The notes under the pieces were generated by a model that was not told where the DNA came from, did not search any database, and saw nothing but the letters and a program-made list of their open reading frames with translations. The position numbers and the translations under genes were made by a program. This document shows, piece by piece, positions 12,191-57,050 of a stretch of DNA of 64,000 nucleotides. Origin of the DNA: Dehalococcoidia bacterium (GTDB taxonomy: Bacteria > Chloroflexota > Dehalococcoidia > Dehalococcoidales > UBA1222); the NCBI GenBank assembly GCA_009779255.1, contig WREQ01000002.1:59-64058 (forward strand), given 5' to 3'. How positions within the stretch are numbered: position 1 is the first letter of the stretch; each line of letters starts with the position of its first letter.

Positions 12191-13450
<1,260 letters not shown>

Positions 13451-13459
13451 GGAGAAGCT

Positions 13460-34228: not shown

Positions 34229-36322
34229 CTAACCGGCCTTGCCGGCACTCTCGGCTTTGATTTCCTCAGCCAGCGCCGCCGGCACCTGTTGATACTGGAA
34301 GAACTCGAGTGAGAATGTAGCGCGCCCCTGAGTCATTGAGCGCAAATCAGTGGTATAGCCAAAGGTCTTGGACAGAGGCACGAGGCCATGCACGATGTTG
34401 GTATCGCCGGTCGTTTCGATAGACTCAACCCGCCCGCGGCGTGAATTCAGGTCCCCGATGATGTCGCCCATATACTGCTCGGGCGTTACCACATCAACCT
34501 TCATGATCGGCTCCAAAATCGCCGCGTTGCATTTATTCAGCGCGTTTTTCAGCGCCAGCGAACCGGCCATCTTGAAGGCCATATCGTTGGAGTCCACCTC
34601 GTGGAAACTACCGTCATAGATAGTGGCCTTCACATCCACCACCTGATAACCGGCCAGCCCTCCCGTCTCAAGAGCATCCTTTATACCTTCACCGGCGGCC
34701 TTGATGAACTCACGAGGCAGCGCGCCGCCACGCACCTTGTCTACATATTCAAAACCCTTCCCGGGGTTCGGCTCAAATTCCACCATTACATGACCGTACT
34801 GGCCGCGGCCGCCGCTCTGGCGCACAAAACGACCCTCCACCTTGCCATCACTGGTAATAGTCTCTTTATAGGCAACTTTAGGAGCACCAACATTGGCGCC
34901 CACCTTGAAATCAGTCATCAGGCGGCTGACCAGCACATCCAGATGCAGCTCACCCATGCCGGCGATAACCGTCTGCCCTGTTTCATCATTGAACGACACC
35001 TTAAAAGTCGGGTCTTCCTCGGACAGCTTGGTCAGACCATCAATCATTTTATCGCGATCGGCGCGGGTTTTCGGCTCTACGGCAACCGAAATAACCGGCG
35101 TCGGGAAGCTGATGGATTCCAGCAACACAGGATGAGCCGGATCGCACAGAGTATCGCCGGTGAAAGTGTTCTTGCTGCCCATAGTGGCCACAATCGAGCC
35201 GGCACCAGCCGATTGAATTTCTTCATGGTGATTGGCGTGCATCAGCAGCAACCGCCCGACACGCTCTTTGTTGCCACGAGTAGAGTTGAGAATGGTGGAA
35301 CCCGCAGTAATGGTTCCGGAATAAACACGCAGATAAACCAGCCGCCCCACAAAGGGATCGGACACGATTTTGAAAGCCAGCACTGCCATGTGAGCATCGT
35401 CGCTGGTAGGGCAGGTCACCACGTCACCGGTTTTGACATCTGTGGCCTTGGCGTCCGGTTTGTCCAGCGGCGATGGCAGATAATCCACCACGGCGTCAAG
35501 CAATGGCTGCACTCCCTTGTTCTTGAGGGATGAACCGCACAGCACCGGGATCGCCTTGCCATTCAACGCCACCCTGCGCAGCGCCGCCTTGAGATCGGAG
35601 ACACTGACTTCGGCGCCTTCCAAATAGGCGCTCATAATATAATCATCAACCTCAGCCAGTCTTTCAATCATTTTCACGCGGTGCTCTTCATAATCAGCCT
35701 TCTGCTCCGCGGAAATTTCCCTGACACTGGGAGGGTCATCGGGTTTGGCACCATCGTAAACAATCGCCTTACCCTCAACCAGATCAATCATGCCGATAAA
35801 GGTGCTTTCCTTGCCAATCGGAAGTTGTATGACAATAGGCCGAGCCTTGAGACGAGTCTCGATCATGCCCACACAGCGAAAGAAATCGGCGCCGGTGCGG
35901 TCAAGCTTGTTGACCAAGCAAATACGCGGCACACCGTAGCGATCAGCCTGGCGCCACACCGTCTCACTCTGCGCTTCCACGCCGGCCACGCCGTCAAAAA
36001 CAACCACACCCCCGTCAAGCACGCGCAGACTGCGTTCCACCTCGGCGGTGAAATCGACGTGTCCGGGCGTGTCAATCAGGTTGACGCGGTAGCCGTTCCA
36101 TTCGGTAGTGGTAGCAGCGGAGCAAATGGTGATGCCGCGGGCGCGCTCCTGCTCCATCCAGTCCATCACCGTAGTGCCTTCATCGATGTTGCCAAGCTTA
36201 TAGGTGCGGCCCGTATAGAAAAGGATACGCTCGGTAGTCGTGGTTTTACCGGCATCGATATGAGCGATAATGCCGATGTTGCGTATTTTATCTTTCGCGA
36301 TATTTCCTGCAATTTCAGCCAT
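34229..36322 (-). CDS. fusA: translation elongation factor G
   Basis: 697 aa. G1 AHIDAGKTT, DTPGHVDF, NKLD. Followed after 12 nt by rpsJ, with no tuf between them. Confidence 0.98.
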   Translation of the reverse strand: MAEIAGNIAKDKIRNIGIIAHIDAGKTTTTERILFYTGRTYKLGNIDEGTTVMDWMEQERARGITICSAATTTEWNGYRVNLIDTPGHVDFTAEVERSLRVLDGGVVVFDGVAGVEAQSETVWRQADRYGVPRICLVNKLDRTGADFFRCVGMIETRLKARPIVIQLPIGKESTFIGMIDLVEGKAIVYDGAKPDDPPSVREISAEQKADYEEHRVKMIERLAEVDDYIMSAYLEGAEVSVSDLKAALRRVALNGKAIPVLCGSSLKNKGVQPLLDAVVDYLPSPLDKPDAKATDVKTGDVVTCPTSDDAHMAVLAFKIVSDPFVGRLVYLRVYSGTITAGSTILNSTRGNKERVGRLLLMHANHHEEIQSAGAGSIVATMGSKNTFTGDTLCDPAHPVLLESISFPTPVISVAVEPKTRADRDKMIDGLTKLSEEDPTFKVSFNDETGQTVIAGMGELHLDVLVSRLMTDFKVGANVGAPKVAYKETITSDGKVEGRFVRQSGGRGQYGHVMVEFEPNPGKGFEYVDKVRGGALPREFIKAAGEGIKDALETGGLAGYQVVDVKATIYDGSFHEVDSNDMAFKMAGSLALKNALNKCNAAILEPIMKVDVVTPEQYMGDIIGDLNSRRGRVESIETTGDTNIVHGLVPLSKTFGYTTDLRSMTQGRATFSLEFFQYQQVPAALAEEIKAESAGKAG

Positions 36323-37340: not shown

Positions 37341-37533
37341 TTAAACTTCCCGGCTGACAGGTCTGTAATCACCCTGCAACAGCTTTACGGTGTTTGACGA
37401 ACGCAAGTTGAAAGTATATCAGGGAACAGAAACGAATGTCAAACGCCCGTATAAGCCCAATACATACCCAGCTTGCCAACGGACCTTGTATCTAAAAAAT
37501 TTTGTTGGAAACGTTTGGGGGGAATCCCCTTAG

Positions 37534-38127
37534 TCAGGGATACCTCTCAACTAACTGGAACTTTATACCATTCTCCACACAATACCGGTGAGCGTATGAA
37601 TCTGGAGGGCAGATGATGGTGAGGTTGGGGCACTCATAAAAAGCTTCAGCGCCAATACGGACCACACTACCAGGTATCGTTACACTTTCTAAGTTCAAAC
37701 AACCAGCGAAAGCCCCCCAGATTACAGCGTCCCCATCTCTCGGCGTAAACCCGCCGATGTATGTTACACTGAGTGGTATATATATGGTTGTCAGCCTTTC
37801 GCAACCAAGGAATGCTGTATCGTCAATGCCTATTACTCTTCTGCCATCAATCTGCTCTGGTATAACAACATCGCCGTCAGCGCCCGTATATCCAGTTATT
37901 ATCACCATATACATATACTCAGTTGGCGGATGCCAAATTATTGGTAGCTGTTCGAACCAAATTATAGAGTAGGTAAAATCCGAAGCAGGGTTTGGTTCAG
38001 TTCTACTGGTGTTAGTAAGAGTCGGCTGACTGGTTACTGTATTAAGTGAACAACTCACATTGCATAAAGCTAGTAGCGCTACTATGCATACAACAGATAA
38101 AGTACTGCTAAAAACCCCAACCTTCAT
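37534..38127 (-). CDS. secreted/lipoprotein-like leucine-rich-repeat (BspA/LRR_5-type) surface protein
   Basis: 197 aa. N-terminal hydrophobic signal with ..LLALCNVSC... Repeats of the ..AF..C..L..I.IP.SV..IG..AF.. type. Visibly lower GC than the flanks. Confidence 0.8.
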   Translation of the reverse strand: MKVGVFSSTLSVVCIVALLALCNVSCSLNTVTSQPTLTNTSRTEPNPASDFTYSIIWFEQLPIIWHPPTEYMYMVIITGYTGADGDVVIPEQIDGRRVIGIDDTAFLGCERLTTIYIPLSVTYIGGFTPRDGDAVIWGAFAGCLNLESVTIPGSVVRIGAEAFYECPNLTIICPPDSYAHRYCVENGIKFQLVERYP

Positions 38128-38333
38128 CGTGGTGACCTTTTTACTCGTTCACGAAATAATTATCTGACCACCAACCATTCCGCTTTGGCCAGATTTGGTG
38201 TGAAGTTTCATGATAGATACTCTTCTTAAAGGTAGTTTGCCTACTCCCGCTCGTGGCTTAACCGTAGCAGACCTAATGCAAAGCTGTCAAATTCCTGTAT
38301 GAGGTCCAATATGTGTTGGGCTTGTGCACGCTG

Positions 38334-38363
38334 TTGACATCCACTTCGTGCAAGTGGTATAGT
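38334..38363 (+). promoter_or_regulatory. near-consensus promoter of the aro operon leader
   Basis: TTGACA (38334-38339), 18-nt spacer, TATAGT (38358-38363). The spacer contains the inverted repeat CCACTT-CGTGC-AAGTGG. Confidence 0.65.
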
Positions 38364-38381
38364 CCGTAACAGGAAGAAAAA

Positions 38382-38468
38382 ATGTTACTTACGCTTAACC
38401 CGAACAGCTGGTACTTCTATTACTATTACTTCACTGACGCCACCAGGCGCTCGGGCAGCGAGGCATAG
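38382..38468 (+). CDS. candidate leader peptide (28 aa) rich in aromatic codons
   Basis: Hand-found. RBS AGGAAG (38371-38376), ATG 38382. Translation MLLTLNPNSWYFYYYYFTDATRRSGSEA*. Eight consecutive Trp/Tyr/Phe codons at 38409-38432. Confidence 0.7.
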   Translation: MLLTLNPNSWYFYYYYFTDATRRSGSEA

Positions 38469-38511
38469 TCTTCCGGACCGGTTCAACCATCACAGCAAAT
38501 TTTAATGAAGT

Positions 38512-38540
38512 CCTCCCCGAGCGGGAGGCTTTCTGTTTTT
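38512..38540 (+). terminator. intrinsic terminator (attenuator) between the leader ORF and the first aro gene
   Basis: CCTCCC (38512-38517) pairs with GGGAGG (38523-38528), followed by CTTTCTGTTTTT. The upstream segment CGCTCGGG (38448-38455) plus GAGG (38460-38463) is complementary to 38512-38523 and could act as an anti-terminator. Confidence 0.65.
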
Positions 38541-38678
38541 AAGGGGGAGCGCAATCAAAAAATATCGTTGGAATTTCAGGCTTCACCGGCGGCGCGCGGC
38601 GGGAAGCTGACAGGCGCAAACGGCCGGGTGCATAAATTCAAATATCATTGAAAACTATGGACTAATAAGGAGCAGACC

Positions 38679-39758
38679 ATGATTATAATGAAAAAGGATG
38701 CCTCAAAACAGGAAATCGACAATGTGGTCGCCGAGATAAAAAAACTCGGGCTACGCGCCGATATCTCCCACGGCGAAGCACTGACCGTCATCGGGCTGGT
38801 CGGAGACGAGCGCCGGGTTAATTTTCAGCATCTGGCGGTGCTGCCGGGGGTCAGGGAGACACGCATGATAGAAGCGCCCTACAAACTCATCAACCGCGAG
38901 TATTCAGACGCCTTCCAGGATCCCGGCAAAAGCCGTGTCATTCGCGCCGGTAATATTGAAATCGGCGGCGATAGTCCGGTTTACATCGCCGGGCCATGCG
39001 CCATTGAGAGCCGCGAGCAACTCTTCCGTATCGCCGAAGAGGTTAAAAAGGCCGGCGCTCACATACTGCGTGGCGGCATATTCAAGCCGCGCTCATCGGC
39101 GCACTTTTGGCAGGGACTGGGCTCACAGGGAGATTCAGAAGCGCGCGAGGCGCTATCATGGCTACAGGAGGCTGGCCGGAAATTCGAGATGCCCACCATC
39201 ACCGAAGTGCGCGGCGAATACAAGGCAGCGCTGATTGCGGAATACGTGGACATTCTGCAAATCGGCGCGCGCAACATGTACGACCAGGATCTGCTGAGCA
39301 CCATCGCGCGCCAAGGCAAGCCAGTGCTGTATAAACGCCATTTCGGCGCCAGCGTCGAGGAGTTCCTTTCTTTCTCCGAATACATCGCCGTCGATGGCAA
39401 CAAGGACATCATCCTCTGCGAGCGCGGAGTACTGCCCATCGGCAAAGGCAAGAGCTTCACCCGCTACACCCTGGACATAGCGGCCGTGCCGGTCATCAAG
39501 AAGGAATCCTTCCTGCCGGTGATAGTGGACCCCAGCCATGCAACGGGGCGGCGCGACCTGATATACTCTATGAGCTGCGCCGGAATAGCGGCAGGCGCCT
39601 GCGGTCTGGCCATCGAGGTGCATTACAACCCGGCCGAGGCCTGGGTGGATGCCGCGCAGGCGATTACATCCGATGAGCTGGCAGAAATCATCGACACCTG
39701 CAACCGGATTCATGCGGTTACAGTGGAGCGCAGGAAGATAAACAAGACGGGAGTGTAA
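38679..39758 (+). CDS. aroF: 3-deoxy-7-phosphoheptulonate (DAHP) synthase, type I-beta, with an N-terminal ACT/ferredoxin-like regulatory domain
   Basis: 359 aa. ..GIFKPRSSAHFWQGLG... The ~70-aa N-terminal extension resembles the Thermotoga-type regulated enzyme. RBS AAGGAG. Confidence 0.9.
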   Translation: MIIMKKDASKQEIDNVVAEIKKLGLRADISHGEALTVIGLVGDERRVNFQHLAVLPGVRETRMIEAPYKLINREYSDAFQDPGKSRVIRAGNIEIGGDSPVYIAGPCAIESREQLFRIAEEVKKAGAHILRGGIFKPRSSAHFWQGLGSQGDSEAREALSWLQEAGRKFEMPTITEVRGEYKAALIAEYVDILQIGARNMYDQDLLSTIARQGKPVLYKRHFGASVEEFLSFSEYIAVDGNKDIILCERGVLPIGKGKSFTRYTLDIAAVPVIKKESFLPVIVDPSHATGRRDLIYSMSCAGIAAGACGLAIEVHYNPAEAWVDAAQAITSDELAEIIDTCNRIHAVTVERRKINKTGV

Positions 39759-39759
39759 C

Positions 39760-40830
39760 ATGCAGGCGATACGGATGGCTCTTGGGGAACGCAGCTACAA
39801 CGTCTACATCGGCGCTGGAGCGCTGGACGAAGTCGCCGTACACTTGCGGCGGGCCAAGATGGGACCGCGGCTGGCGTTGGTGACCAACCCCACCGTATTT
39901 GAACTACATGGAAACCGGTTCAGGGAAACGCTCACCGCCGAGGGTTTTGATGTCAGCGTCTTCACCGTGCCGGATGGGGAGGAGTACAAGTCGCTGGAGT
40001 CTGCCGGACGACTGTACACCGAATTCAGCGAGGCGCTAATCGAGCGCTCAACGCCGCTGCTGGCGCTGGGCGGCGGCATCATCGGCGACCTGGCCGGTTT
40101 TGTGGCTGCCACCTACATGCGCGGCATGCCGCTGGTGCAGCTGCCGACCACGCTGCTGGCACAGGTGGATTCATCCATCGGCGGCAAAACGGCGGTCAAC
40201 CACGGCACGCTAAAAAACCAGATTGGCGCCTTCTACCAGCCGGTCGCCGTATTCTCGGACATCGCCGCACTAAAAACCCTGCCCCGGACACAGCTGTCGG
40301 AGGGGCTGGCTGAGATCATCAAATCGGCGGTCATCGGCGATGAGCTGCTGTTCAGAATGCTGGAGCGCCGCACAAAGGAAATCCTCGCCGGCGACGAACG
40401 CCTCCTGCAAGCGGCCGTATCCCGCGCCGCCGCTGTTAAAATAAGTATTGTGCGCCGCGATGAACACGACACCGGACTGCGCAACACACTCAACTTCGGC
40501 CATACCGCCGCGCACGCCATCGAAACCATCACCAACTTCAAGGTCAGCCACGGGGAAGCGGTAGCCGCCGGCATGCTCATCGCCGGACGAGTCGCCGCCG
40601 GCATGGGCGTTTTTCCGGCTTCGGCACTGGAACGCCTGCGGGCGGTCATCAGCGCCGCGGAACTGCCGCTTTCGCTGCCGCTGAACGCCTCCGAAGTGCT
40701 GGAGGCAATCAAGCACGATAAAAAAATGATGAGCGGGAAACTTAAATTCATACTGCCGACCAGAATCGGGCAAGTCGTCATCAGCGACAGGGTAACCCCG
40801 GACATGGTCGCCGAGGCTATCGTTGAGTAA
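39760..40830 (+). CDS. aroB: 3-dehydroquinate synthase
   Basis: 356 aa. ..LALGGGIIGDLAGFVAATYMRG.., ..GGKTAVN... Confidence 0.95.
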   Translation: MQAIRMALGERSYNVYIGAGALDEVAVHLRRAKMGPRLALVTNPTVFELHGNRFRETLTAEGFDVSVFTVPDGEEYKSLESAGRLYTEFSEALIERSTPLLALGGGIIGDLAGFVAATYMRGMPLVQLPTTLLAQVDSSIGGKTAVNHGTLKNQIGAFYQPVAVFSDIAALKTLPRTQLSEGLAEIIKSAVIGDELLFRMLERRTKEILAGDERLLQAAVSRAAAVKISIVRRDEHDTGLRNTLNFGHTAAHAIETITNFKVSHGEAVAAGMLIAGRVAAGMGVFPASALERLRAVISAAELPLSLPLNASEVLEAIKHDKKMMSGKLKFILPTRIGQVVISDRVTPDMVAEAIVE

Positions 40831-41488
40831 AAAAAATTCGCCGCGCATCTGCGCCGTGATTACCCGGAACGACCCTGGGTTGATTGCCGCGGCCTCGCGC
40901 TATGCAGATCTTTTCGAGGTGCGCATTGACCTCATCGGCGGGGACTGGCTCAAGCTGGCTAAAATGCTCAGAAAGCCATGGCTGGCCACCAATCGCCTCA
41001 AGATAGAGGGCGGCGCATGGGACGGTAGTGAGGAAGCACGCCGCAACGAACTGCTGAAGGCCGCCAAAGCAGGCGCCAGCATCGTGGATGTAGAGCTGGC
41101 GTCGCCGGATATTGGTGAAATCGTGCCGCAAATCAAGAAATATTCCCTTTGCCTGGTATCGCATCACAACAACCGCCGCACCCCGGCCAGCGCAACCCTG
41201 CGCCGCGTCATTGAGGCGGAAATCGCCGCCGACGCCGACATCTGCAAACTGGTAACCACCGCGCGCAACAGCGAGGACAACCTGACCATACTCAGCGTAA
41301 TCGGCGAATACCGCCAGACACGCATCGTCGCCTTCGCACAGGGGCCACGCGGGCAGCTGAGCCGACTGCTGTGCCCGCTGGCCGGCGGAGACTTTACCTA
41401 CGCCGCCATAGACGGCGCGGAGACGGCGGCACCCGGACAGCTGACGCTGTCTCAAATGCGGCGGCTTTATGGGGTAAGCGGATTATGA
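40823..41488 (+). CDS. aroD: 3-dehydroquinate dehydratase, type I
   Basis: 221 aa. ..ICAVIT....A......ADLFEVRIDLI... Overlaps the aroB end by 8 nt. Confidence 0.85.
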   Translation: MSKKNSPRICAVITRNDPGLIAAASRYADLFEVRIDLIGGDWLKLAKMLRKPWLATNRLKIEGGAWDGSEEARRNELLKAAKAGASIVDVELASPDIGEIVPQIKKYSLCLVSHHNNRRTPASATLRRVIEAEIAADADICKLVTTARNSEDNLTILSVIGEYRQTRIVAFAQGPRGQLSRLLCPLAGGDFTYAAIDGAETAAPGQLTLSQMRRLYGVSGL

Positions 41489-42891
41489 ACGGCACATCCA
41501 CCAAACTCTGCGGCGTCATCGGCGACCCGGTTGGACATACGCTTTCGCCGGTTATGCACAATGCCGCTATGGAACACCTGGGGTTGGATTATGTCTACTT
41601 GGCCTTCCATGTAAAACCGGCGGGGCTTGCGGCGGCGATTGAGGGCGTGAGAGCGATGGGCATCGCCGGACTAAATGTCACCATGCCGCACAAGGTGAGT
41701 GTAATTCAGCATCTGGATGACCTCGACGGGCTGGCCCGCGATATCGGCGCGGTTAATACCATTGTAAATAAAGATGCACGGCTCACCGGCTTTAACACCG
41801 ACGCCGGCGGCTTTCTATGGTCACTGGCTGACGCCGGATTCGACTCAGAAGACCAAGACGTCGTGCTACTGGGTGCAGGTGGCGCCGCGCGCGCTGTCGG
41901 ATTCGCGCTGGCGCGCTCCGGCGCCCGCGTCACCATACTCAACCGCGCGAATGAGCTGGACCAGGCGATAAAACTGGCGGAAACCCTAAGCACCGTCGCG
42001 AAATGCGAAGTGGATGCTTTAGAATTGAACGCGGCCAACCTCAAAAAGAGTCTGGAAAAGGCCTCGTTGCTGGTCAACGCCACCAGCATAGGCATGGAGT
42101 CCAACAACGCGGAAACGCCGGTTCCGGCGGAGCTGCTCCGTCCCGGGCTTACCGTGTTTGACATAGTTTATGCTCCGCTTGAAACCCGGTTTTTGAAAGA
42201 AGCGAAACAGCGCGGCTGCCGGACCATAGGCGGGCTGGAGATGCTGGTACGGCAGGGAGCGCTGGCACTGGAGTTATGGACAAGGCAGGAGGCACCGGTG
42301 GCCGTCATGCACAAGGCGGCGCTCGCCGCCATCTCTACGCAGGCTAAGTCAGCACCACCACCCCGAACGATAACTTCTATCGCGTTGATTGGCTTTATGG
42401 GCGCAGGTAAATCATCAGTCGGACGCGCCCTGTGCGACATACTGGGCAAACCGCTAGCAGATACAGACGCACTGATTGAGAAACACACCGGCAGGACGAT
42501 TGCCCAAATATTCAGCGAGGACGGCGAAGCAGCCTTCCGCCGCATGGAGCGTGACGTCATCGCAGAAGTCTCCCGCACGGGAGGGAACGTAATCGCCTGC
42601 GGCGGCGGCGCGGTACTTGACCCTGCAAATATCGAGAACATCAAAAGAAACGCTGTAGTCGTCTACCTGCAGGCCTCCGCCGAAGACATCAAAAAACGCC
42701 TGGCCGGGAGCGGTGACCAGCGTCCTCTGCTGGCGGAAGGGACAGACAAGGTGGCTGGCATGCTGGCCGAACGCATCACCATGTATGAAAACGCCGCCGA
42801 CATCATTATTGAAACCTCACGGCTCAACACCGAGGCCGTAGCGGATGAAATTATAAAGCAGTTGAGAAGCTATGAAGATTTCGATTTCTAA
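41485..42891 (+). CDS. aroE: fused shikimate dehydrogenase / shikimate kinase
   Basis: ATG 41485 overlaps the aroD stop (ATGA). N-terminal ..GVIGDPVGHTLSPVMHNAA.. is the AroE part. The C-terminal ~170 aa carry Walker A GFMGAGKSSVGR and form the AroK part. 468 aa as one frame. Confidence 0.9.
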   Translation: MNGTSTKLCGVIGDPVGHTLSPVMHNAAMEHLGLDYVYLAFHVKPAGLAAAIEGVRAMGIAGLNVTMPHKVSVIQHLDDLDGLARDIGAVNTIVNKDARLTGFNTDAGGFLWSLADAGFDSEDQDVVLLGAGGAARAVGFALARSGARVTILNRANELDQAIKLAETLSTVAKCEVDALELNAANLKKSLEKASLLVNATSIGMESNNAETPVPAELLRPGLTVFDIVYAPLETRFLKEAKQRGCRTIGGLEMLVRQGALALELWTRQEAPVAVMHKAALAAISTQAKSAPPPRTITSIALIGFMGAGKSSVGRALCDILGKPLADTDALIEKHTGRTIAQIFSEDGEAAFRRMERDVIAEVSRTGGNVIACGGGAVLDPANIENIKRNAVVVYLQASAEDIKKRLAGSGDQRPLLAEGTDKVAGMLAERITMYENAADIIIETSRLNTEAVADEIIKQLRSYEDFDF

Positions 42892-44140
42892 AAGCATCGC
42901 CAAGGGGCTGCTGGACGCTCCCTCGTCCAAGAGCTACACCATCCGCGCCCTGATGTGCGCCGCGTTGGCTCCGGGCCACAGCTACATCCGGCGGGCGCTT
43001 TTCGCCGATGACACGCTGGCCGCCGCAGATGTACTGCAAAAGACCGGCATCGGCATCCTCAAAAACGAACACGGCTGGGGCATTGAAGGCGGCCTGCTCA
43101 AAACACCGTCCTCCGAATTGTTCTGCCGCGACAGCGCCGCCACACTGCGCTTCATGACCGCCATATCTGCCCTGATTCCCGGCACGGTGCGGCTGGTGCC
43201 AGGGGCGGGGCTGGCAAAACGTCCTGTGCTGCCGTTGCTGGACGCGCTGACGCAGCTGGGAGTGAACTGCCGGCTGGAAGACCAGACGATACTAGTGGAA
43301 GACAGCGAATTTCACGGTGGCCGGGTGGAGATGCCCGGCGACATCAGCTCGCAATTCATTTCAGCGCTGCTTATAGCCGGGGCGCGCTCGCAACAGGGAG
43401 TGCAAATCGCGCTCACCTCGCCGCCGGTTTCCAAACCCTATCTGAATATGACCATCGAATGCCTCAAAAAGTTCGGCATACACGCCGCCGCTTCTCCAAC
43501 TATGGAGGAGTTCAGAGTTGCCCGCCAAGACTTCCGCCCCGTCGAATACACCGTGGAGGGAGACTGGTCGCAAGCCTCCTACTTGCTGGCATTGGGAACG
43601 CTCTGCGGAGAGGTGATTGTAAGCAATCTGAACGCCGAGAGCCTGCAGGGTGACCGCGTAATCCTCACCTTGCTGACCCGCATGGGAGCGCGCCTATCGG
43701 TGCGACGCAGTTCAGTAATGGCACAAAGATCATTCCTGCACGGCATCAACGCCGACCTGTCGGACTGCATTGACCTGCTCCCCACCATGGCCGTCCTCGC
43801 CGCCTGCGCTGACGGCGAGAGCCGTTTTTCCGGTGTCAAAAACGCGCGTCTCAAGGAATCCAACCGAGTTGAGGCGGTCGCTGCCGAACTGCGGAAAACC
43901 GGCATCCGAGTGCGCGATGAAGACGATGTGCTGGTCATCTTCGGCGGTAGCCCACGCGGCGCCGTTATCGACAGTCACGATGATCACCGCATGGCGATGG
44001 CCTTCGGCGTGCTGGGAGCGGCCGCCGGCGATATGACGATTGAAGGCGCCGAATGTGTCGCCAAGACCTATCCCGATTTCTGGAAATCCCTGACCACGCT
44101 CGGCATAAAGGTGGAAAACGATGTCAAACAGTCTGGGTAA
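42872..44140 (+). CDS. aroA: 3-phosphoshikimate 1-carboxyvinyltransferase (EPSP synthase)
   Basis: 422 aa. ..PSSKSYTIRAL.. and ..RLKESNRVEAV... Confidence 0.95.
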   Translation: MKISISKSIAKGLLDAPSSKSYTIRALMCAALAPGHSYIRRALFADDTLAAADVLQKTGIGILKNEHGWGIEGGLLKTPSSELFCRDSAATLRFMTAISALIPGTVRLVPGAGLAKRPVLPLLDALTQLGVNCRLEDQTILVEDSEFHGGRVEMPGDISSQFISALLIAGARSQQGVQIALTSPPVSKPYLNMTIECLKKFGIHAAASPTMEEFRVARQDFRPVEYTVEGDWSQASYLLALGTLCGEVIVSNLNAESLQGDRVILTLLTRMGARLSVRRSSVMAQRSFLHGINADLSDCIDLLPTMAVLAACADGESRFSGVKNARLKESNRVEAVAAELRKTGIRVRDEDDVLVIFGGSPRGAVIDSHDDHRMAMAFGVLGAAAGDMTIEGAECVAKTYPDFWKSLTTLGIKVENDVKQSG

Positions 44141-45212
44141 GCTCTTTCGCGTCACCTCATTCGGCGAAAGCCACGGACGGCTGGTTGGCGCTGTCATCGA
44201 CGGCTGCCCCGCCGGACTTGAGCTATCGGAGGCCGATATTCAGCCTGACCTTGACCGGCGTCGGCCGGGCGGCGGCGCCGTCTCTACACCCCGCACCGAG
44301 GAAGACCAGGCCGACATTCTCTCCGGCGTCTTCAACGGCAAAACAACAGGGGCGCCCATCTGCATTACCATCCCCAACCGGAACGCACAGTCCGATGATT
44401 ATGCAGAACAGCGCTCAATTCCCCGCCCCAGCCACGCCGACTACACTTATTACGTCAAGTACGGCGGCCACGCCGATTACCGCGGCGGCGGGCGCGCCTC
44501 CGGACGCCTCACCGCGAGTATGGTGATGGCAGGCGCGATAGCCAGAAAATTGCTGACTGCCCAAGGGATAGAAATACTGGGACACGCCGTCGAGATTGGC
44601 GGAATCAAAACCTCCGCACGCGATTATGACACGATTCGACGCGATGCCCGGTTTAACGCCACTGGCTGTGCTGACCAGGACGCGGCGAAGCTGATGCTTC
44701 AGGCAATTGATAGGGCGCGCCGCGATGGCGACAGTCTGGGTGGTATTATCGAGGTGATCGCGCTGGGCGTGCCGGCCGGGCTGGGTGAGCCGCTTTTCGA
44801 CAGCGCAGAGAGCGCCATGGCACAAGCCTTCTTCTCCATTCCGGCGGTCAAGGGCGTGGAGTTCGGCGCTGGATTTGCCGCTGCCCGTCTCAAGGGTTCA
44901 GAAAATAACGATCCTTTCATCATAAGCGAAGGCAGGGTGCAAACCGACTCCAACCACGCCGGCGGCATACTGGGCGGCATTACAAGCGGCATGCCTATCA
45001 CAGCGCGTCTTGCAGTCAAGCCTACCCCTTCAATTGCCCTACCACAACGTAGCGTCAATCTGGAAAGCCTAAGCGCGGCGGAGATGTCCGTCAGAGGCCG
45101 CCATGACCCGTGCGTAGTGCCGCGCGCCATAGTGGTAGCCGAAGCCGCCATGGCGATAACATTGTGCGACCTGTCCATCATAGCAGGCACAATGGGGAGA
45201 GTGATGGCATGA
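44121..45212 (+). CDS. aroC: chorismate synthase
   Basis: 363 aa. ..FRVTSFGESHG..VGAVIDGCPAGL... Confidence 0.96.
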   Translation: MSNSLGKLFRVTSFGESHGRLVGAVIDGCPAGLELSEADIQPDLDRRRPGGGAVSTPRTEEDQADILSGVFNGKTTGAPICITIPNRNAQSDDYAEQRSIPRPSHADYTYYVKYGGHADYRGGGRASGRLTASMVMAGAIARKLLTAQGIEILGHAVEIGGIKTSARDYDTIRRDARFNATGCADQDAAKLMLQAIDRARRDGDSLGGIIEVIALGVPAGLGEPLFDSAESAMAQAFFSIPAVKGVEFGAGFAAARLKGSENNDPFIISEGRVQTDSNHAGGILGGITSGMPITARLAVKPTPSIALPQRSVNLESLSAAEMSVRGRHDPCVVPRAIVVAEAAMAITLCDLSIIAGTMGRVMA

Positions 45213-46438
45213 GCCTCGAGAATCTGCGCGGCGCCATCGACGACGTGGACGCCCGCATCGTCAAACTGCTGGCCGAGCGACTGCTGATTGCCGGCCAAAT
45301 CGGACTGGAAAAGCGCCTCGGCGGCATACCACTCAATGACGCCGCGCGCGAGGCCACCGTACTGGAACGCGTCCGCCGGCTGGCCGAAGCCGAGGGAGTG
45401 AGCGCCGCCGCTGTTGAAAACGTCTACCGCCACATCATCACCTCCTCCAAGAGCGTGCAGGATGTTTCCACCGCCTTACAGGGCGAAACAGGCACTCAAG
45501 TCGGTGCCGCATCATATGTTATTCCTGAAGGTGACTGGCGCATACCGGAGCGCCGGCTGGGACACAGCAGAACAACCAAGAGATTTGCCATCGTGGGTGG
45601 CGCCGGCAGGATGGGACGCTGGCTGGGCAAGCTGCTGCTGGCTGAGCAAATGGATGTCATCCTCATTGGGCGGGATGCCGGACGGTTATCCGTCGCCTCC
45701 AGCGAACTCAAAACCGTGGCTACCACCGACCTGCGCGCAGCGGGTAGCGCCGACGTGATTATTCTGTCGGTGCCGATAAACGGCTTCGCGTCACTAGTGG
45801 AAGAACTTGGCCAGTACGTAAAACCCGGCCAGACGGTAATCGACCTGACCTCGGTCAAGGTGATGCCAGTGGACATGATGCACAAACACTTGCCGAACTG
45901 TCTGACGCTGGGGGCGCACCCTGTATTCGGCCCCGGGGCGGAAAGCCTATCCGGCCACAACGTCATTCTCACGCCTACGAACGACCCTGAGCAGGCGCTG
46001 GCACAATGGGCGCAAACATGGCTGGAAACACACGGAGCGCGCGTGCGGCTGATGTCCCCCACCGAGCATGACCGGCTGATGTCGGTGGTTCTGGGATTGG
46101 CACACTTCATCGCCATCGTATCCGGCGACGTGATTCTGAACCAGGAGGACCACGCCGGTCTTGAAATGGCCTCCGGCGTCACCTTCCGGGCGCTTCGTGC
46201 GCTGGTTGCCAGCGTTCTGGGAGAAGACCCTGAGCTATACGCCGCTATACAGACCAATCTGCCGGATCTGCCGGTGCTGGAACGCAGCTTCATCGAAAAA
46301 GCCGCAGAATGGGCAGACCTAGTCGCGGCGGGCAACGCCATAGAGTTCGCCCGCCGTATGCGGGCGCTTGATGACCGGCTGGAGCGTGGCGAGTCTAGAG
46401 CCGCCTACAATGCCCTATACCGCATCACAGAGAAATAA
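45209..46438 (+). CDS. tyrA: bifunctional chorismate mutase (AroQ-type) / prephenate dehydrogenase
   Basis: ATG 45209 overlaps the aroC stop (ATGA). N-terminal ..LRGAIDDVDARIVKLLAERL.. is the CM part. The Rossmann motif ..IVGGAGRMGRWLG.. starts the PDH part. Confidence 0.88.
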   Translation: MSLENLRGAIDDVDARIVKLLAERLLIAGQIGLEKRLGGIPLNDAAREATVLERVRRLAEAEGVSAAAVENVYRHIITSSKSVQDVSTALQGETGTQVGAASYVIPEGDWRIPERRLGHSRTTKRFAIVGGAGRMGRWLGKLLLAEQMDVILIGRDAGRLSVASSELKTVATTDLRAAGSADVIILSVPINGFASLVEELGQYVKPGQTVIDLTSVKVMPVDMMHKHLPNCLTLGAHPVFGPGAESLSGHNVILTPTNDPEQALAQWAQTWLETHGARVRLMSPTEHDRLMSVVLGLAHFIAIVSGDVILNQEDHAGLEMASGVTFRALRALVASVLGEDPELYAAIQTNLPDLPVLERSFIEKAAEWADLVAAGNAIEFARRMRALDDRLERGESRAAYNALYRITEK

Positions 46439-52113: not shown

Positions 52114-53763
52114 CTACCTCAGCTCCAGCTCTTTCTTCTTTTTATCAAAGATGAGCACGACGACAAGAATCTCCAGGATGAAGATAGTCGCGTTCACAAT
52201 GGTCCAAATGTCCACCAGCCGCACAGGCATGCTCATGTCCTCGGTCAGGAAGAAGACGATGACGCCGATAACAGCCAGGATGCCGACAACGAACAGCCAG
52301 AGGTACTTCACTGTGCGGACTTCCTGGTGGCCTTCTTTATCTTTGACACCATTCCACAAGAAGGCTCTGATCAACACCAGAACGGCCAGCAGCACCCCCA
52401 GGAGACAGAGGATGAGGTTGACGAGCGCCCATGGGTCGCCGTCTGAAGGCGGCGGCGGCGGATCACCACCCGTCGTCTGCGTCCAGTTGGCCCTTACGGT
52501 GACGTCGTTTGCCGGCATGGTGAAGGTGGTGGTGGCGCTGCTTGAGTTAGCCAGCGTAACGCCGCCCGAAACAACCGTCCAGCCAATGAAGGTATATCCG
52601 TCTCTGGCGCCGGCGTGGATGGTTACGACATTGCCGGGGGTGTAAGTGCCAGCGCCGGTGGTAGAAGCATAGCTGTCGTTGACGTAGACGGTATAGGCAG
52701 GAGGAGGCGGCGGGGAAGTCGTCTGTGTCCAATTGGCTCTTACGGTGACGTCGTTTGCCGGCATGGTGAAGGTGGTGGTGGCGCTGCTTGAGTTAGCCAG
52801 CGTAACGCCGCCCGAAACGACTGTCCAGCCCGCAAAGGTATATCCGTCTCTGGCGCCGGCATTGATGGTTACAACACTGCCAGGGGTGTAAGTGCCAGCG
52901 CCGGTGGTAGAGGCATAGCTGTCATTGACGTAGACGGTATAGGCAGGAGGAGGCGGCGGAGAAGTCGTCTGTATCCAATTGGCTCTTACGGTGACATCGT
53001 TTGCCGGCATGGTAAAGGTGGTGATACCGCTGTTTGGAGTAAACAGGGTCACGCCGCCGGAAACGACCGTCCATCCGGTGAAGGTATATCCGTCTCTGGC
53101 GCCGGCATGGATGGTTACGACCTCACCTTGGGCATAAGTCCCAGCGCCCGTGGGAGAAGCATAGCTGTCGTTGACGTAGACTCTATAGGCGGGCGGCTGC
53201 GGGGTGGCGGTAGTGGGAGGGGCGATATAAGAATGATTATAGCTTATACCATCGACCTTATCGCCAGCCTGGTTGCGGATAACCACTGTTGTTATGTCAT
53301 GCTCACTGCCGGCACGGACTTCAATGGTATACACCGCGTCGTCATAGGAATAACCAGGGAGACCGTGGGACGTAATATGGGTAAGGTCATAAGTATAGGT
53401 ACCGGTAGCCGCCACGCTGAAATCCAGAATGAGAGGCTGGTTCACCGTACCCGCCAGGGTAAAGATATAACTACCAGAATCAATGTAGCCACCGCTGATG
53501 TTGCTTGGCAAGGGATGGAAAGGCGTCCTTGGGGTAAGCTTATAGGTAAAACCAGCATTCGGAGCTGCTGCCGTATCGCCGGTAAAGTGCTGTTCAACGC
53601 TCTGGGTAACCACGCCCGGGGCCGCCATCACTGCAGGCGGGGTACCCAGGATATTCCCAAGCAGACAAACGGCTAAAATGACAGGGAGGGCAACCCCACC
53701 GACTTTGCCTATTTTAGCCTGGAGTATTCTTTTTATACCGGAAAGCATGGTGGTCATATTCAT
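52114..53763 (-). CDS. membrane-anchored pilin-domain / Listeria-Bacteroides-repeat surface protein (candidate basal pilus subunit)
   Basis: 549 aa. Signal peptide, then an FctA/Spy0128-like pilin-type segment (GFTYKLTP.., GTYTYDLTH...YSYDDAVYTIEVR). Three 82-aa repeats (..GYTF.GWTVVSGGVTL...FTMPANDVTVRANW) with PPPPP linkers. Three C-terminal TM helices and a KKKK tail. No sorting motif. Confidence 0.8.
   Translation of the reverse strand: MNMTTMLSGIKRILQAKIGKVGGVALPVILAVCLLGNILGTPPAVMAAPGVVTQSVEQHFTGDTAAAPNAGFTYKLTPRTPFHPLPSNISGGYIDSGSYIFTLAGTVNQPLILDFSVAATGTYTYDLTHITSHGLPGYSYDDAVYTIEVRAGSEHDITTVVIRNQAGDKVDGISYNHSYIAPPTTATPQPPAYRVYVNDSYASPTGAGTYAQGEVVTIHAGARDGYTFTGWTVVSGGVTLFTPNSGITTFTMPANDVTVRANWIQTTSPPPPPAYTVYVNDSYASTTGAGTYTPGSVVTINAGARDGYTFAGWTVVSGGVTLANSSSATTTFTMPANDVTVRANWTQTTSPPPPPAYTVYVNDSYASTTGAGTYTPGNVVTIHAGARDGYTFIGWTVVSGGVTLANSSSATTTFTMPANDVTVRANWTQTTGGDPPPPPSDGDPWALVNLILCLLGVLLAVLVLIRAFLWNGVKDKEGHQEVRTVKYLWLFVVGILAVIGVIVFFLTEDMSMPVRLVDIWTIVNATIFILEILVVVLIFDKKKKELELR
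52465..53196 (-). repeat. three tandem ~246-bp coding repeats
   Basis: Repeat starts PAYRVYVND / PAYTVYVND / PAYTVYVND at residues 191, 273 and 355. Copies 2 and 3 are almost identical at the DNA level by eye. Confidence 0.9.
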
Positions 53764-53764
53764 C

Positions 53765-54709
53765 CTACCCCTCGTATTGCAAATTGCGGTGGTTACGGCG
53801 ACGTTTGTTCCGCATGATTAAGAACAGAATCAGTACCAGGAAGAGAACCAGCAGGATTACGATGATAATCTTGCCCCACAGTGGGATACTCTCCCACAGG
53901 CCAGGAAGACCATCAACCGCCTTGGACTCTCCAATAAGTTTGTTCGTTTCCGACTCGTTAAAAGTTTCATAGGTAATCCTCCCGATAAGGATATCCCGTC
54001 CGCTGGTGGAGGAGCTGGAACAGGTGGCGAGGAGGATAATCCGATCCGAGGTGTCAACCCCGATATCGCGGGAATGGATGGCCATTTCCCCAATGCGATC
54101 AAGATATGCCTGTTGGGCTGGCTGCCCCGTGACGCGGGGATGGAAAATCTGGTAATCATAAGCACTGGTGTGGATAAAAGCGAAGAACTCCAGCCCGTAT
54201 TCTTTGCCATCATAATACAACATACCGTAAGGACGGGCTTCAAAATATTTCTGGTCGGCGAAGTTCCCAATCTCCCCGAACATGACCTGTTTTTCCATGT
54301 GGTGCCCGTAAATGATAGAGTTGAAATCGGAAAAATTCCGACTGCTACTGGCATCAATGAATATGGCGCCGGACAGGGAATATTTCCCTTCGGCGTTGGT
54401 ATTGACATACTTGAGGTTGTTTCTCCCCTGAACTACGGGATAGTCGATATTGGTGCCGTAGACCGTAAGCCAGGCGCAGACATCAGTGTTAATTGCCTGG
54501 AGTCTGGTAAAGGCCTCCCCGGCGTTCTCAGCTGTGGGTTTATATATCTCATAGCGGGCGGCGCTGGCAGCACCTGTGACTTGGTTGGAATCCCACATGG
54601 CGTAGCAGCCGATAGTAATAAGTAGCATCAAAGACATCAGAACGACGGTGTCTAAAACACCATGCGCCGCCTTGATGGCCCTCTTTCCTATCTTAACTGC
54701 TACGCTCAT
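53765..54709 (-). CDS. sortase, class B-like, with an extra C-terminal TM helix
   Basis: 314 aa. N-terminal anchor. ..NTDVCAWLTVYGTNIDYPVVQG.., His motif IYGHHM, Cys motif LLATC, Arg in SGRDILIG. C-terminal IIIVILLVLFLVLILFLI plus RNKRRR. Confidence 0.88.
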   Translation of the reverse strand: MSVAVKIGKRAIKAAHGVLDTVVLMSLMLLITIGCYAMWDSNQVTGAASAARYEIYKPTAENAGEAFTRLQAINTDVCAWLTVYGTNIDYPVVQGRNNLKYVNTNAEGKYSLSGAIFIDASSSRNFSDFNSIIYGHHMEKQVMFGEIGNFADQKYFEARPYGMLYYDGKEYGLEFFAFIHTSAYDYQIFHPRVTGQPAQQAYLDRIGEMAIHSRDIGVDTSDRIILLATCSSSSTSGRDILIGRITYETFNESETNKLIGESKAVDGLPGLWESIPLWGKIIIVILLVLFLVLILFLIMRNKRRRNHRNLQYEG

Positions 54710-54751
54710 ATGGGTTCTTACCTTAAAGGTTCGTGTTTTTAAGCTACAACC

Positions 54752-56173
54752 TTAGGAGATAACCGGTTCCTCTTGGTTGTCTTTCCTTTTGCGGGACTTG
54801 ATGGCCACGAAGAGTACGAGGCCGCCGACAGCCAGAACAATGAGGCCTACGAAGGCCAGGGTGTTCAGGTTGAGGCCGGTGGGCGGATCTTCGCTGTAGG
54901 TGTTGGTGAACAGGGCATAAGAATCACCCTGCTCAATGTCGCCTACATACAGGTTGGGGATGGGGGTGGCGTCAGCGGTGGGATCGTTGACGTTCAGGTA
55001 GACAACAGGGATGCCGAGGGGAGAGGCAACAGTGCTGCTCCAGCCGCCCTTAGCGTTGCCGTAGGCTTCGCCGTTAAGGTAAACAACGGCAAATGGGTAG
55101 TACTTGACAGCTCCGGCTTCGGCGACGGCGTAGGTGGCACTAGCCTCCAGGCCGGAGAAGAAGACCAGGCGCTGGCCGTCTTCCAGTGTGATACCGGTCT
55201 TCGCTACACCAGAGATGAATTCAATGTAGAGACCGTAGGCGCTAGTACCGGCAGAGTCGTTGACGTTGGTGACGTTAAGCCACGTACCAGGGTTGAGGAT
55301 GTCTTCCTGCATGACGGCAGCCCAGTACACTGAGGTGTTGTCAACGGTAGCAGGCTGGGTGACGGTCACGGTGAAATCAAAAGAGGTTACGGTACCGCCG
55401 ACGATATCCTTTTGAATGTACAGGAAGCCTTTGCCGTCGGTGGGGGTAGTGGTGTCGAATATGCGGTCGATGGTGTTGGTGAAAGCCAGGCCGTAGGCGC
55501 CTCCGCTGGTATCTACCTTGCCCAGGGTATCGGTAAAGTCATCGCCGAAGTCATCAACAGCCTTGAAGCCATAGACGCCGAAGATATAGAGGTCACCGAC
55601 TTGATGGTCAGGGCAACCAGCAGTATTGCATTCCTCAATGACGACGTAGAGGTAATACACGGCCTCGGAATAGTGCAGGTAGTCCTCGTAGTCAACACCG
55701 TCGGCTGTTACGTCGTCGCCAAGGAAGGCAGGGTTGGTGGCAGGCACGGTTTCCACAATCTCGTAGATGTAAATACCGGCAAGGCTCCAGGTAACGGCGT
55801 CTAAATCAATCTTTTCTTCCGCGTAGTAGTTGTCGTAGCCGTTAGGAACGGCAATGTCAGCTGCAGTCTCGTTGCCGTCAAAGGAGATGATGACGGTGTT
55901 GGCGCCACTAGTGACAAAGGTAAGCCCGGGCATGGTACTAGCGACGGTCTTATCGCCATTAAAGGAATACGGGGTGATGGTGAATTCAAAGTCGAGAGCG
56001 CCCGAATAGTTCGTAAATACAATACCGGAGGGGACCTTCAGCACTTTGGTAACGTAGGCTTCGGTGATAGCGTCTGGATCCACGGGGTCGGCCATAACAG
56101 ACACCGGCAGTGTTGTAAGACACAGCGCCAGCGTCATCAGGGAGGCCAAGGCTAGTTTGAGTTTCTTGGTCAT
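54752..56173 (-). CDS. two-domain pilin-like sortase substrate (candidate backbone pilin), sorting signal DPPTG
   Basis: 473 aa. Signal peptide ..LPVSVMA/DP. ..IYIYEIVETVP...YSEAVYYLYVVIEE... Two domain-terminal FTNT motifs. C-terminus EDPPTG, hydrophobic helix, KSRKRK. Confidence 0.85.
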   Translation of the reverse strand: MTKKLKLALASLMTLALCLTTLPVSVMADPVDPDAITEAYVTKVLKVPSGIVFTNYSGALDFEFTITPYSFNGDKTVASTMPGLTFVTSGANTVIISFDGNETAADIAVPNGYDNYYAEEKIDLDAVTWSLAGIYIYEIVETVPATNPAFLGDDVTADGVDYEDYLHYSEAVYYLYVVIEECNTAGCPDHQVGDLYIFGVYGFKAVDDFGDDFTDTLGKVDTSGGAYGLAFTNTIDRIFDTTTPTDGKGFLYIQKDIVGGTVTSFDFTVTVTQPATVDNTSVYWAAVMQEDILNPGTWLNVTNVNDSAGTSAYGLYIEFISGVAKTGITLEDGQRLVFFSGLEASATYAVAEAGAVKYYPFAVVYLNGEAYGNAKGGWSSTVASPLGIPVVYLNVNDPTADATPIPNLYVGDIEQGDSYALFTNTYSEDPPTGLNLNTLAFVGLIVLAVGGLVLFVAIKSRKRKDNQEEPVIS

Positions 56174-56279
56174 GCTTTTCCTTTCAGTTTTTTTTATTTT
56201 TTTGTTTTATATAAACAGGGGGTTAAGCCCGCCTGATACCTTTCATGGCAAGTTCTGTCATGTTTTAGTTGACACAAGG

Positions 56280-57047
56280 CTAGAGTCCTCTCCAGCGCAA
56301 GATAGTAATAACCGAACCCTTGGTGTCCTTGACGTTCACGGCTCCGTAGATACGGCTGTCGGTAGCGCTGGCTCGGGCATCACCCAAAACGAAGACCTCA
56401 TCTGCCTTTAACAGCATGGGAAAGCTGACGTCGCTCATGTACCGCTCGGTCTTCTCATAAATATCCGGCTCCTGCACCAAGGCGCTGTTCACCAGTAGGC
56501 CGTGGGTGTTGATATCAACAGTATCCCCTGCCACAGCCACCACCCTGCGAACCTGGGTCTGCCCCTCAAAGGTCAGGAGGAGAAGGTCGCCGGGTTCGTA
56601 GGACTTGTCCCAACGGTAATACATCACCAGGTCCCCGTCCTTCATCGCCGGAACCATCCCGGGTTCGCTGTTGTAGTGAATGCCATAGACAAAAGTGAAA
56701 GCCGCCACGGCCACGGCCACAATGATGCCGATTTTTGCTCCCAACCCCCCCAGCTCCCGCAGGAAAGAGTAGGAAGAAGAGCGGCGGGCAGGCGCCTTAG
56801 GGCGCGGCGGGACAGGGGTTGCGCCGCTACCCTCACTGCAAGTGGAAGTCGCGCTGCCAACCCCAGCAGGCCTTTTGCCCAACTCTACCTGGGAGGCAGA
56901 CGACACCTTTCCCTCACTGTGGCCGGAGGATATCACGGCATCGCTCCTGCCGGGTGGCGGCAAGATGACGGTATCCTCCCCCGAGGTGGGGGCAGGCAAA
57001 CCAGACGGGTTATTGTTTGAATCCATCTTGTCTTCAAGTCTCTCCAT
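56280..57047 (-). CDS. signal peptidase I (S26) homologue lacking the Ser/Lys dyad (SipA/LepA-like pilus accessory protein)
   Basis: 255 aa. Pro/Ser/Gly-rich N-terminal region, one TM. GMVPAMKDGD aligns to SMxPTLxxGD (Ser to Gly130). VRRVVAVAGD aligns to xKRxxGxPGD (Lys to Arg167). GDARASATDSR box retained. Confidence 0.8.
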   Translation of the reverse strand: MERLEDKMDSNNNPSGLPAPTSGEDTVILPPPGRSDAVISSGHSEGKVSSASQVELGKRPAGVGSATSTCSEGSGATPVPPRPKAPARRSSSYSFLRELGGLGAKIGIIVAVAVAAFTFVYGIHYNSEPGMVPAMKDGDLVMYYRWDKSYEPGDLLLLTFEGQTQVRRVVAVAGDTVDINTHGLLVNSALVQEPDIYEKTERYMSDVSFPMLLKADEVFVLGDARASATDSRIYGAVNVKDTKGSVITILRWRGL

Positions 57048-57050
57048 AGA

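Follow-up and report, generated by a model that had tools for sequence, protein, structure and literature searches.

In Corynebacterium glutamicum, the aroF (DAHP synthase) operon is preceded by aroR, which encodes a leader peptide with the sequence Phe-Tyr-Phe. According to the account of this system in PMC11802643, read-through responds to limitation of Phe and not of Tyr, despite the Tyr codon (Neshat et al. 2014). A leader-gene survey deemed the Chloroflexi too sparsely sampled (PMC4833913), a survey of Actinobacteria reported no Tyr or Phe elements (PMC1262725), and a survey of premature terminators made no mention of Dehalococcoides, Chloroflexi or aro genes in this connection (PMC2965389). 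Our full-text literature search, which was thin on subscription journals, returned no description of a leader-peptide attenuator of this kind in Dehalococcoides or Chloroflexi. Here, we characterize an element located upstream of an aromatic amino-acid (aro) operon in a 64,000-nucleotide (nt) stretch of DNA from a Dehalococcoidia bacterium (contig WREQ01000002.1 of assembly GCA_009779255.1). This whole stretch is referred to as the window, and all coordinates are positions within it unless a locus is named. Based on its sequence elements, conservation in 80 species, helix covariation, energetics and spacing, the element very probably acts on the aro operon as a ribosome-mediated (leader-peptide) transcription attenuator.

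An earlier note on this DNA had described a promoter, a ribosome binding site and a 28-codon open reading frame (ORF) encoding the octapeptide run WYFYYYYF. Direct reading located each of these where the note had placed them:

38334-38339, + strand: −35 box, TTGACA, separated by an 18-nt spacer from the −10 box
38358-38363, + strand: −10 box, TATAGT, of the extended type, with TG at 38355-56 (TGgTATAGT, 38355-63)
38371-38376, + strand: Shine-Dalgarno-like AGGAAG, 5 nt ahead of the leader ATG (38382)
38382-38468, + strand: leader peptide ORF, MLLTLNPNSWYFYYYYFTDATRRSGSEA, of 28 codons plus the stop codon TAG (38466-68)
38409-38432, + strand: regulatory aromatic run, TGG TAC TTC TAT TAC TAT TAC TTC (W Y F Y Y Y Y F), codons 10-17 of the leader

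The promoter is of the sigma-70 type. A promoter scanner scored it 11/12 (38334..38363), and it was the top promoter-like site within 37500-39500. The leader ATG sits 18 nt past the −10 box. Among all six frames of the 64-kb window, the leader contains the one run of at least six aromatic codons, the next longest run being five. Similarly, among the small ATG-initiated ORFs of the window, the leader alone scored 8/8 aromatic. No other mini-ORF with an aromatic run and no other amino-acid biosynthetic operon was found in the window.

Beyond the aromatic run, the RNA contains the components of a switch:

38434-38441, + strand: segment 1, the 5′ arm of hairpin P1 (1:2, the anti-antiterminator or pause hairpin)
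38446-38463, + strand: segment 2, comprising the 3′ arm of P1 (38446-38454) and the overlapping 5′ strand of the antiterminator (38448-38455 and 38460-38463)
38512-38523, + strand: segment 3, the 5′ arm and loop of the terminator, doubling as the 3′ strand of the antiterminator
38507-38540, + strand: intrinsic terminator, with a stem that spans 38507-38532 including flanking pairs (ΔG −13.2 kcal/mol) and a U tract up to 38540

The terminator core starts 43 nt 3′ of the leader stop codon. It consists of CCTCCC (38512-17), the loop CGAGC (38518-22) and GGGAGG (38523-28), and is followed by CTTTCTGTTTTT (38529-40). In the antiterminator, CGCTCGGG (38448-55) pairs with CCCGAGCG (38516-23), and GAGG (38460-63) pairs with CCTC (38512-15). 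The earlier note had also claimed the terminator, its U tract and the complementarity of leader and terminator; these were confirmed by direct reading and RNAduplex, the latter returning exactly the 38448-63/38512-23 pairing, at −18.4 kcal/mol. The note had further suggested folding the region for two alternative structures. Indeed, the alternative pairing is not negligible: the antiterminator hairpin is the minimum-free-energy structure (−18.8 kcal/mol, vs −13.2 kcal/mol for the terminator hairpin) until the 3′ arm of the terminator is transcribed. When each structure was forced over 38433-38532, the energies were −28.8 kcal/mol for the terminator and −28.2 kcal/mol for the antiterminator. 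As the two are nearly isoenergetic, the order of events would decide the outcome, as in known attenuators. In folds of the RNA downstream of a ribosome placed on the stop codon, the terminator was the only possible structure. Finally, P1 (38434-38454, in which 38434-38441 pairs with 38446-38454) had an energy of −10.9 kcal/mol and shares seven nt with the antiterminator strand 38448-38463. Thus, the anatomy described in the earlier note stands in that all of the claimed elements are present; what it had overlooked is P1, which completes the 1:2 / 2:3 / 3:4 design.

These components suggest the following course of events. Transcription would start approximately 7 nt past TATAGT, and a ribosome would translate the 28-codon leader. 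When charged tRNA-Tyr, tRNA-Phe and probably tRNA-Trp are plentiful, the ribosome would cross the run and segment 2 and reach the stop codon at 38466. With segment 2 covered, segment 3 (38512-23) would emerge partnerless, the terminator (38507-38532) would form and the polymerase would stop near 38540. A shortage of an aromatic aminoacyl-tRNA would stall the ribosome within 38409-38432 where, if it sat on the final codons, it would cover segment 1 (38434-41). P1 would then be blocked, and segment 2, lying just past the leading edge of the ribosome, could pair with segment 3 as the antiterminator. Once the antiterminator had formed, the terminator would not, and the operon would be transcribed. 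Ribosome stalling, the identity of the sensed amino acids and termination in vivo are predictions of this scheme.

The conservation of the element was evaluated using 80 loci from species-representative genomes in which the DAHP synthase is 63-81% identical to that of the window. All 80 loci are from metagenome-assembled genomes of Dehalococcoidales/Dehalococcoidia, including Dehalogenimonas (L061 and L075) and several loci of Dehalococcoidaceae. Enough upstream DNA was available in 79 loci; in the remaining one, L008, the contig ends inside the leader, and the antiterminator strand and terminator are kept. In 79/79 loci there is an ATG-initiated ORF of 21-45 codons with a dense aromatic run, 165-330 nt ahead of the DAHP synthase start. 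Leaders were picked automatically: the picker took an upstream extension in several loci (e.g., L015, L017, L043, L048) and chose the wrong ORF in L053, which was excluded from the statistics. True or shorter leaders were judged by promoter position. By comparison, an ATG ORF scoring at least 5/8 aromatic was present in 2.1% of 1600 random 300-nt windows from related loci vs 94% of the stretches that precede the DAHP synthase gene. A strong intrinsic terminator with a U tract (−9 to −29 kcal/mol) separates the leader stop codon from the DAHP synthase gene in every locus; its core is CCUCCC or CCCUCYC paired to GGGAGG.

The elements flanking the leader are likewise conserved. Throughout the family, the leader is preceded by a perfect TTGACA, and the promoter score was at least 9/12 in 68/79 loci. 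The relatives have either a Shine-Dalgarno-like motif or a leaderless arrangement ahead of the leader. Specifically, nine loci (L002, L003, L019, L026, L032, L061, L075, L076, L080) lack a Shine-Dalgarno sequence, and just 6-10 nt separate the end of their −10 box from the leader ATG; at this distance, the leader would be translated from a leaderless mRNA. A Shine-Dalgarno-like motif is present in the window and in many of the other loci. The aroB gene lies 3′ of the DAHP synthase gene in 80/80 loci. The upstream neighbour varies, being rpsL in just 21. The element thus tracks DAHP synthase-aroB and not the upstream gene, which indicates that it belongs to the aro operon.

The runs of the family comprise 4-11 aromatic codons (median 7). 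Overall, there are 553 such codons: 344 for Tyr (139 TAC, 205 TAT), 147 for Phe (32 TTC, 115 TTT) and 62 for Trp. The mixture of TAC with TAT and of TTC with TTT, interspersed with TGG, is indicative of selection on aromatic amino acids rather than on a nucleotide repeat. The predominance of Tyr fits the presence of tyrA in the operon.

We then examined the RNA helices across the family. Directly 3′ of the aromatic run there is a short GC hairpin, the 3′ arm of which continues into a G-rich segment, e.g., GCGCUUGGGAGG. Across loci, this G-rich segment of the leader is complementary to the 5′ arm and loop of the terminator. Indeed, the terminator loop, which would otherwise be free to drift, co-varies with the leader segment, the observed combinations including CGAGCG/CGCUCG, CAAGCG/CGCUUG, CCAGGCG/CGCCUGG and CCUCUC/GAGAGG. 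Covariation was counted on a MAFFT alignment made blind to structure. In the antiterminator helix, which has 11 pairs, 85.8% of the cells were paired vs at most 68% in slid controls, and 9/11 pairs had two-sided changes. For example, the column pair 36-133, which connects the leader to the terminator loop, is UA in 30 loci, CG in 18 and GC in 14. From the same alignment, RNAalifold yielded the antiterminator helix as the consensus unaided. The P1 helix was 84% paired, with two-sided changes in 4/5 pairs, and the terminator helix was 84.9% paired, with 9/11 pairs covarying. This last percentage understates the per-locus folds, as the 3′ arm of the terminator slips in the alignment due to differing loop lengths. 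Pairing was also specific to the locus: leaders paired with their own terminators at a mean of −19.3 kcal/mol and with foreign terminators at −15.9 kcal/mol; 0/10000 permutations reached the mean observed for own terminators. Shuffled leader segments paired at −10.7 kcal/mol.

The three interlocking segments consist of a Shine-Dalgarno-like GGGAGG and an anti-Shine-Dalgarno-like CCUCCC, a core that is nearly invariant over the 80 species. Accordingly, a Shine-Dalgarno-like GGGAGG lies inside the leader ORF, approximately 14-25 nt past the aromatic run.

The spacing of the segments fits what ribosome footprints require. The median gap between the end of the run and the antiterminator strand is 14 nt (interquartile range 11.5-17). 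The median start of the 5′ arm of P1 lies 5 nt ahead of the end of the run, such that a ribosome stalled late in the run would mask this arm. Of the antiterminator strand, a median of 10 nt fall within P1. The median lengths sequestered by the antiterminator are 7 nt for the terminator arm and 4 nt for the loop. The distance from the antiterminator strand to the start of the stop codon is 5 nt at the median and at most 15 nt in 72/79 loci; in the window, it is 0 nt when the strand is defined by the duplex.

Taken together, the element combines a leader ORF, a cluster of codons for the pathway's products, an intrinsic terminator, a covarying antiterminator, a stop codon placed to occlude segment 2 and a maskable 1:2 hairpin, although in the window the antiterminator is not completely displaced by P1 at equilibrium. 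The earlier note had ascribed trpL/pheL-type logic to the element and had proposed an alignment of related genomes to look for the ORF, its aromatic run and compensatory changes. The 79/79 conservation, the compensatory changes in the antiterminator helix and the appreciable alternative pairing all support that logic.

Several observations weigh against the attenuator or against its detailed operation. In ribosome-free RNA of the window up to the terminator loop, the antiterminator is preferred over full P1 at equilibrium; termination in the absence of translation would thus depend on kinetics, i.e., on kinetic trapping. The 181-nt region as a whole is not unusually stable, with a fold z-score of −0.69, a statistic that is uninformative for a switch of short competing helices. 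Of the eight aromatic codons in the window, just the last four or so lie so close to segment 1 that a ribosome stalled there could mask it. When the full transcript was folded with a masked ribosome, the outcome depended on the model and the terminator calls were inconsistent. These folds were dropped as they joined RNA from either side of the ribosome in unrealistic long-range pairs, and were replaced by the folds of RNA downstream of the ribosome and the forced-structure energies. With respect to the sensed amino acids, the aroR leader, as described in the source above, has a Tyr codon with no Tyr effect; codon content alone is therefore no proof of what is sensed. Finally, we know of no demonstration of transcription-translation coupling in Dehalococcoidia.

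The most substantial alternative accepts the attenuator and differs in what it senses. That a single attenuator senses all three aromatic amino acids is a tentative reading of the sequences, for which we judge the chances to be somewhat below even. It is consistent with the co-occurrence of all three residue types in 57/79 runs, with the placement of Trp as the last aromatic residue, i.e., at the most effective stall site beside P1, in 35/79 leaders, and with an operon that mainly encodes the common pathway for all three products. Each of these observations argues against a sensor of tyrosine only, or of Tyr and Phe, that would carry its Trp codons and part of its Phe codons as passengers. Such a sensor appears unlikely on balance, yet several points favour it: Tyr accounts for 344/553 aromatic codons, the last gene of the operon encodes a Tyr-specific prephenate dehydrogenase, 18/79 leaders lack Trp (Phe and Tyr being present in 18 runs), and the read-through of aroR in C. 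glutamicum, as described in PMC11802643, answered to one of the two aromatic amino acids encoded.

The other alternatives dispense with the attenuator itself. In one, the small ORF is untranslated and the terminator is constitutive or controlled by a protein or ligand (a T-box, riboswitch or RNA-binding-protein attenuator), the UAY repeats being an RNA motif. It might draw on the finding that a Shine-Dalgarno-like 4-mer lies within 20 nt of just 31/79 start codons as picked automatically. Nevertheless, the loci lacking one include the nine whose −10 box position fits leaderless translation, and every locus has an in-frame ATG and a frame that is open through the run and ends at, or at most 27 nt past, the antiterminator strand. 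Moreover, synonymous mixing and the use of TGG/TTY for TAY keep the aromatic residues but not the nucleotides, there is no large conserved aptamer-like structure, and the 43-64-nt spacer is not conserved. An Rfam cmscan of 37900-38900 at E ≤ 10 returned three irrelevant sub-threshold matches, with no match to Trp_leader, Phe_leader, His_leader, Leu_leader, Thr_leader, the leu/phe leader or the T-box. We consider an untranslated ORF very improbable. Still less probable is that the peptide itself is functional, as a micro-protein or a nascent-chain arrest peptide, the terminator merely ending a small transcript. The conserved aromatic-rich core and the frequent W-R after it might be read in this way, but the N- and C-termini are free in length and sequence (21-45 residues), and the covarying P1 and antiterminator helices account at the RNA level for the conservation past the run. 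Further, the element is always directly upstream of DAHP synthase-aroB and co-oriented with it, and the leader peptides matched no protein family in NCBIfam (four representatives, E ≤ 10) or Pfam (three, E ≤ 1). Last, promoter and terminator scanners also gave 2-5 consensus matches per 2 kb in shuffled sequence, which would allow a promoter-like site, a spurious ORF and a hairpin to coincide by chance in intergenic DNA. Chance is scarcely credible, having already been refuted by the conservation in 80 species, the covariation, and the permutation and random-window controls. A leader-peptide attenuator thus remains the preferred interpretation.

The genes that this attenuator would control were identified using NCBIfam:

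38541-38678, + strand: spacer of 138 nt between the attenuator and the DAHP synthase gene, holding the Shine-Dalgarno sequence of the latter (AAGGAG, 38667-72)
38679-39758, + strand: DAHP synthase
39760-40830, + strand: aroB
40823-41488, + strand: aroD
within 41371-42891, + strand: aroE-aroK fusion
42872-44140, + strand: aroA
44121-45212, + strand: aroC
within 45110-46438, + strand: chorismate mutase/prephenate dehydrogenase

The operon, 38679..46438, thus comprises seven co-directional and mostly overlapping genes, the shikimate/tyrosine gene content that the earlier note had assigned to it. The DAHP synthase matches the full-length family NF006421 from residue 1, including an N-terminal extension of approximately 85 residues that precedes the catalytic TIGR01361 domain. 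The N-terminal extension of related DAHP synthases is an allosteric domain. The aromatic pathway may therefore be under allosteric control as well as attenuation.

The spacer between the terminator and the DAHP synthase gene differs among loci. In the window it is 138 nt vs a median of 49 nt in the relatives, and contains a GC-rich hairpin at approximately 38580-38608 (GCTTCACCGGCGGCGCGCGGCGGGAAGC) that lacks a U tract, is absent from the other loci and has a fold z-score of −0.94. As neither conserved nor significantly structured, the long spacer and its hairpin were dropped as parts of the mechanism. In L078 (~2812-3000), the corresponding spacer is 197 nt and contains approximately ten copies of CGGGAAT/TGGGAAT at 10-20-nt intervals, which looks like an array for an RNA- or DNA-binding protein. 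The spacer of L004 (~2840-3000), again between the attenuator's terminator and the DAHP synthase gene, contains a further small ORF, MLALQKQTKWSEQGHLPAREIYYYCPKFTCHFS, whose product includes a YYY triplet; this ORF may be a second or degenerate leader.

Upstream of the attenuator, the genes are on the opposite strand: that of a leucine-rich repeat (LRR) protein, followed by rpsL, rpsG and a 697-residue ORF (34229-36322) that is presumably fusA. Due to this orientation, the + strand terminator cannot belong to an upstream gene. The LRR protein is of the BspA type (37534-38127, − strand) and is encoded just upstream of the attenuator. Elsewhere in the window, a class B sortase gene adjoins that of a FILTED/Listeria-Bacteroides-repeat surface protein (52114-63968, − strand), with ORFs of 473 and 2305 residues nearby. 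The sortase, surface-protein and LRR genes are an unusual set of cell-surface genes for Dehalococcoidia. In addition, the genes for adenosylhomocysteinase and metK adjoin at 12191-14665; there is no recognisable leader ORF at that site.

The element bears on the biology of an order that includes the organohalide-respiring Dehalococcoides and Dehalogenimonas, slow-growing organisms without genetic tools whose gene regulation is almost uncharted. It provides confidently predicted cis-regulation for the whole aromatic amino-acid pathway of the Dehalococcoidales, in at least 80 species, and predicts that these bacteria respond to aromatic amino acids from community partners. With three interlocked helices and abundant covariation, the comparative set is also a clean model family. 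Leader-peptide attenuation requires ribosomes close behind the RNA polymerase, and lineages with 'runaway' transcription, e.g., Bacillus, use T-boxes and riboswitches instead. The element would thus be indirect evidence of transcription-translation coupling in this branch of the Chloroflexota. A broader proposal joins several of these strands: integration of the charging states of the three aromatic tRNAs, ranked by position (a Tyr run, then Phe and often one Trp at the base of P1), an order-wide master switch of the common pathway, some leaderless leaders, and the first sequence-level evidence of tight transcription-translation coupling in the lineage. As a whole, this proposal is possible, though we would not yet call it probable.

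Among described systems, aroR of C. glutamicum is the closest functional precedent, as far as its description in PMC11802643 extends. Like the element of the window, aroR is a leader-peptide attenuator directly before an operon whose first gene encodes DAHP synthase, it has mixed aromatic codons, and stalling raises read-through. It differs in belonging to the Actinomycetota and in having three aromatic codons, none for Trp; the two were compared by functional description only. By contrast, the Dehalococcoidales family has 4-11 aromatic codons, dominated by Tyr and usually including Trp, and precedes a seven-gene operon that includes tyrA. The earlier note had suggested that a mixed aromatic leader is new for Dehalococcoidia/Chloroflexota. 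This holds to the extent that no report from the Chloroflexota was found, but the design itself is not unprecedented, since the aroR leader, as described, is a mixed leader before a DAHP synthase operon.

The pheL-pheA and pheM-pheST systems of Enterobacteria (Phe_leader, RF01859) have the same four-segment logic, a run of aromatic codons and alternative hairpins. Unlike the element described here, they use Phe codons alone and control a terminal-branch enzyme or a tRNA synthetase, and their Rfam model had no match at this locus. Similarly, trpL of E. coli (Trp_leader, RF00513) shares the 1:2 / 2:3 / 3:4 arrangement, the placement of the codons at segment 1 and a stop codon that lets the ribosome cover segment 2, but it has just two Trp codons, controls the Trp branch and likewise had no Rfam match here. 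The Tyr, Phe and Trp T-boxes of Firmicutes also sense tRNA charging and operate an antiterminator/terminator switch before aro genes, as far as they are covered in PMC1262725 (Panina et al. 2003). In contrast to the present element, T-boxes bind uncharged tRNA directly, without translation, and none was matched at the locus. Overall, the element works like the trpL, pheL and hisL attenuators but belongs to no curated leader family. It represents a new, well-defined family within a known attenuator class, one that is valuable and holds no mechanistic surprise, as it follows the textbook trp/phe/his design.

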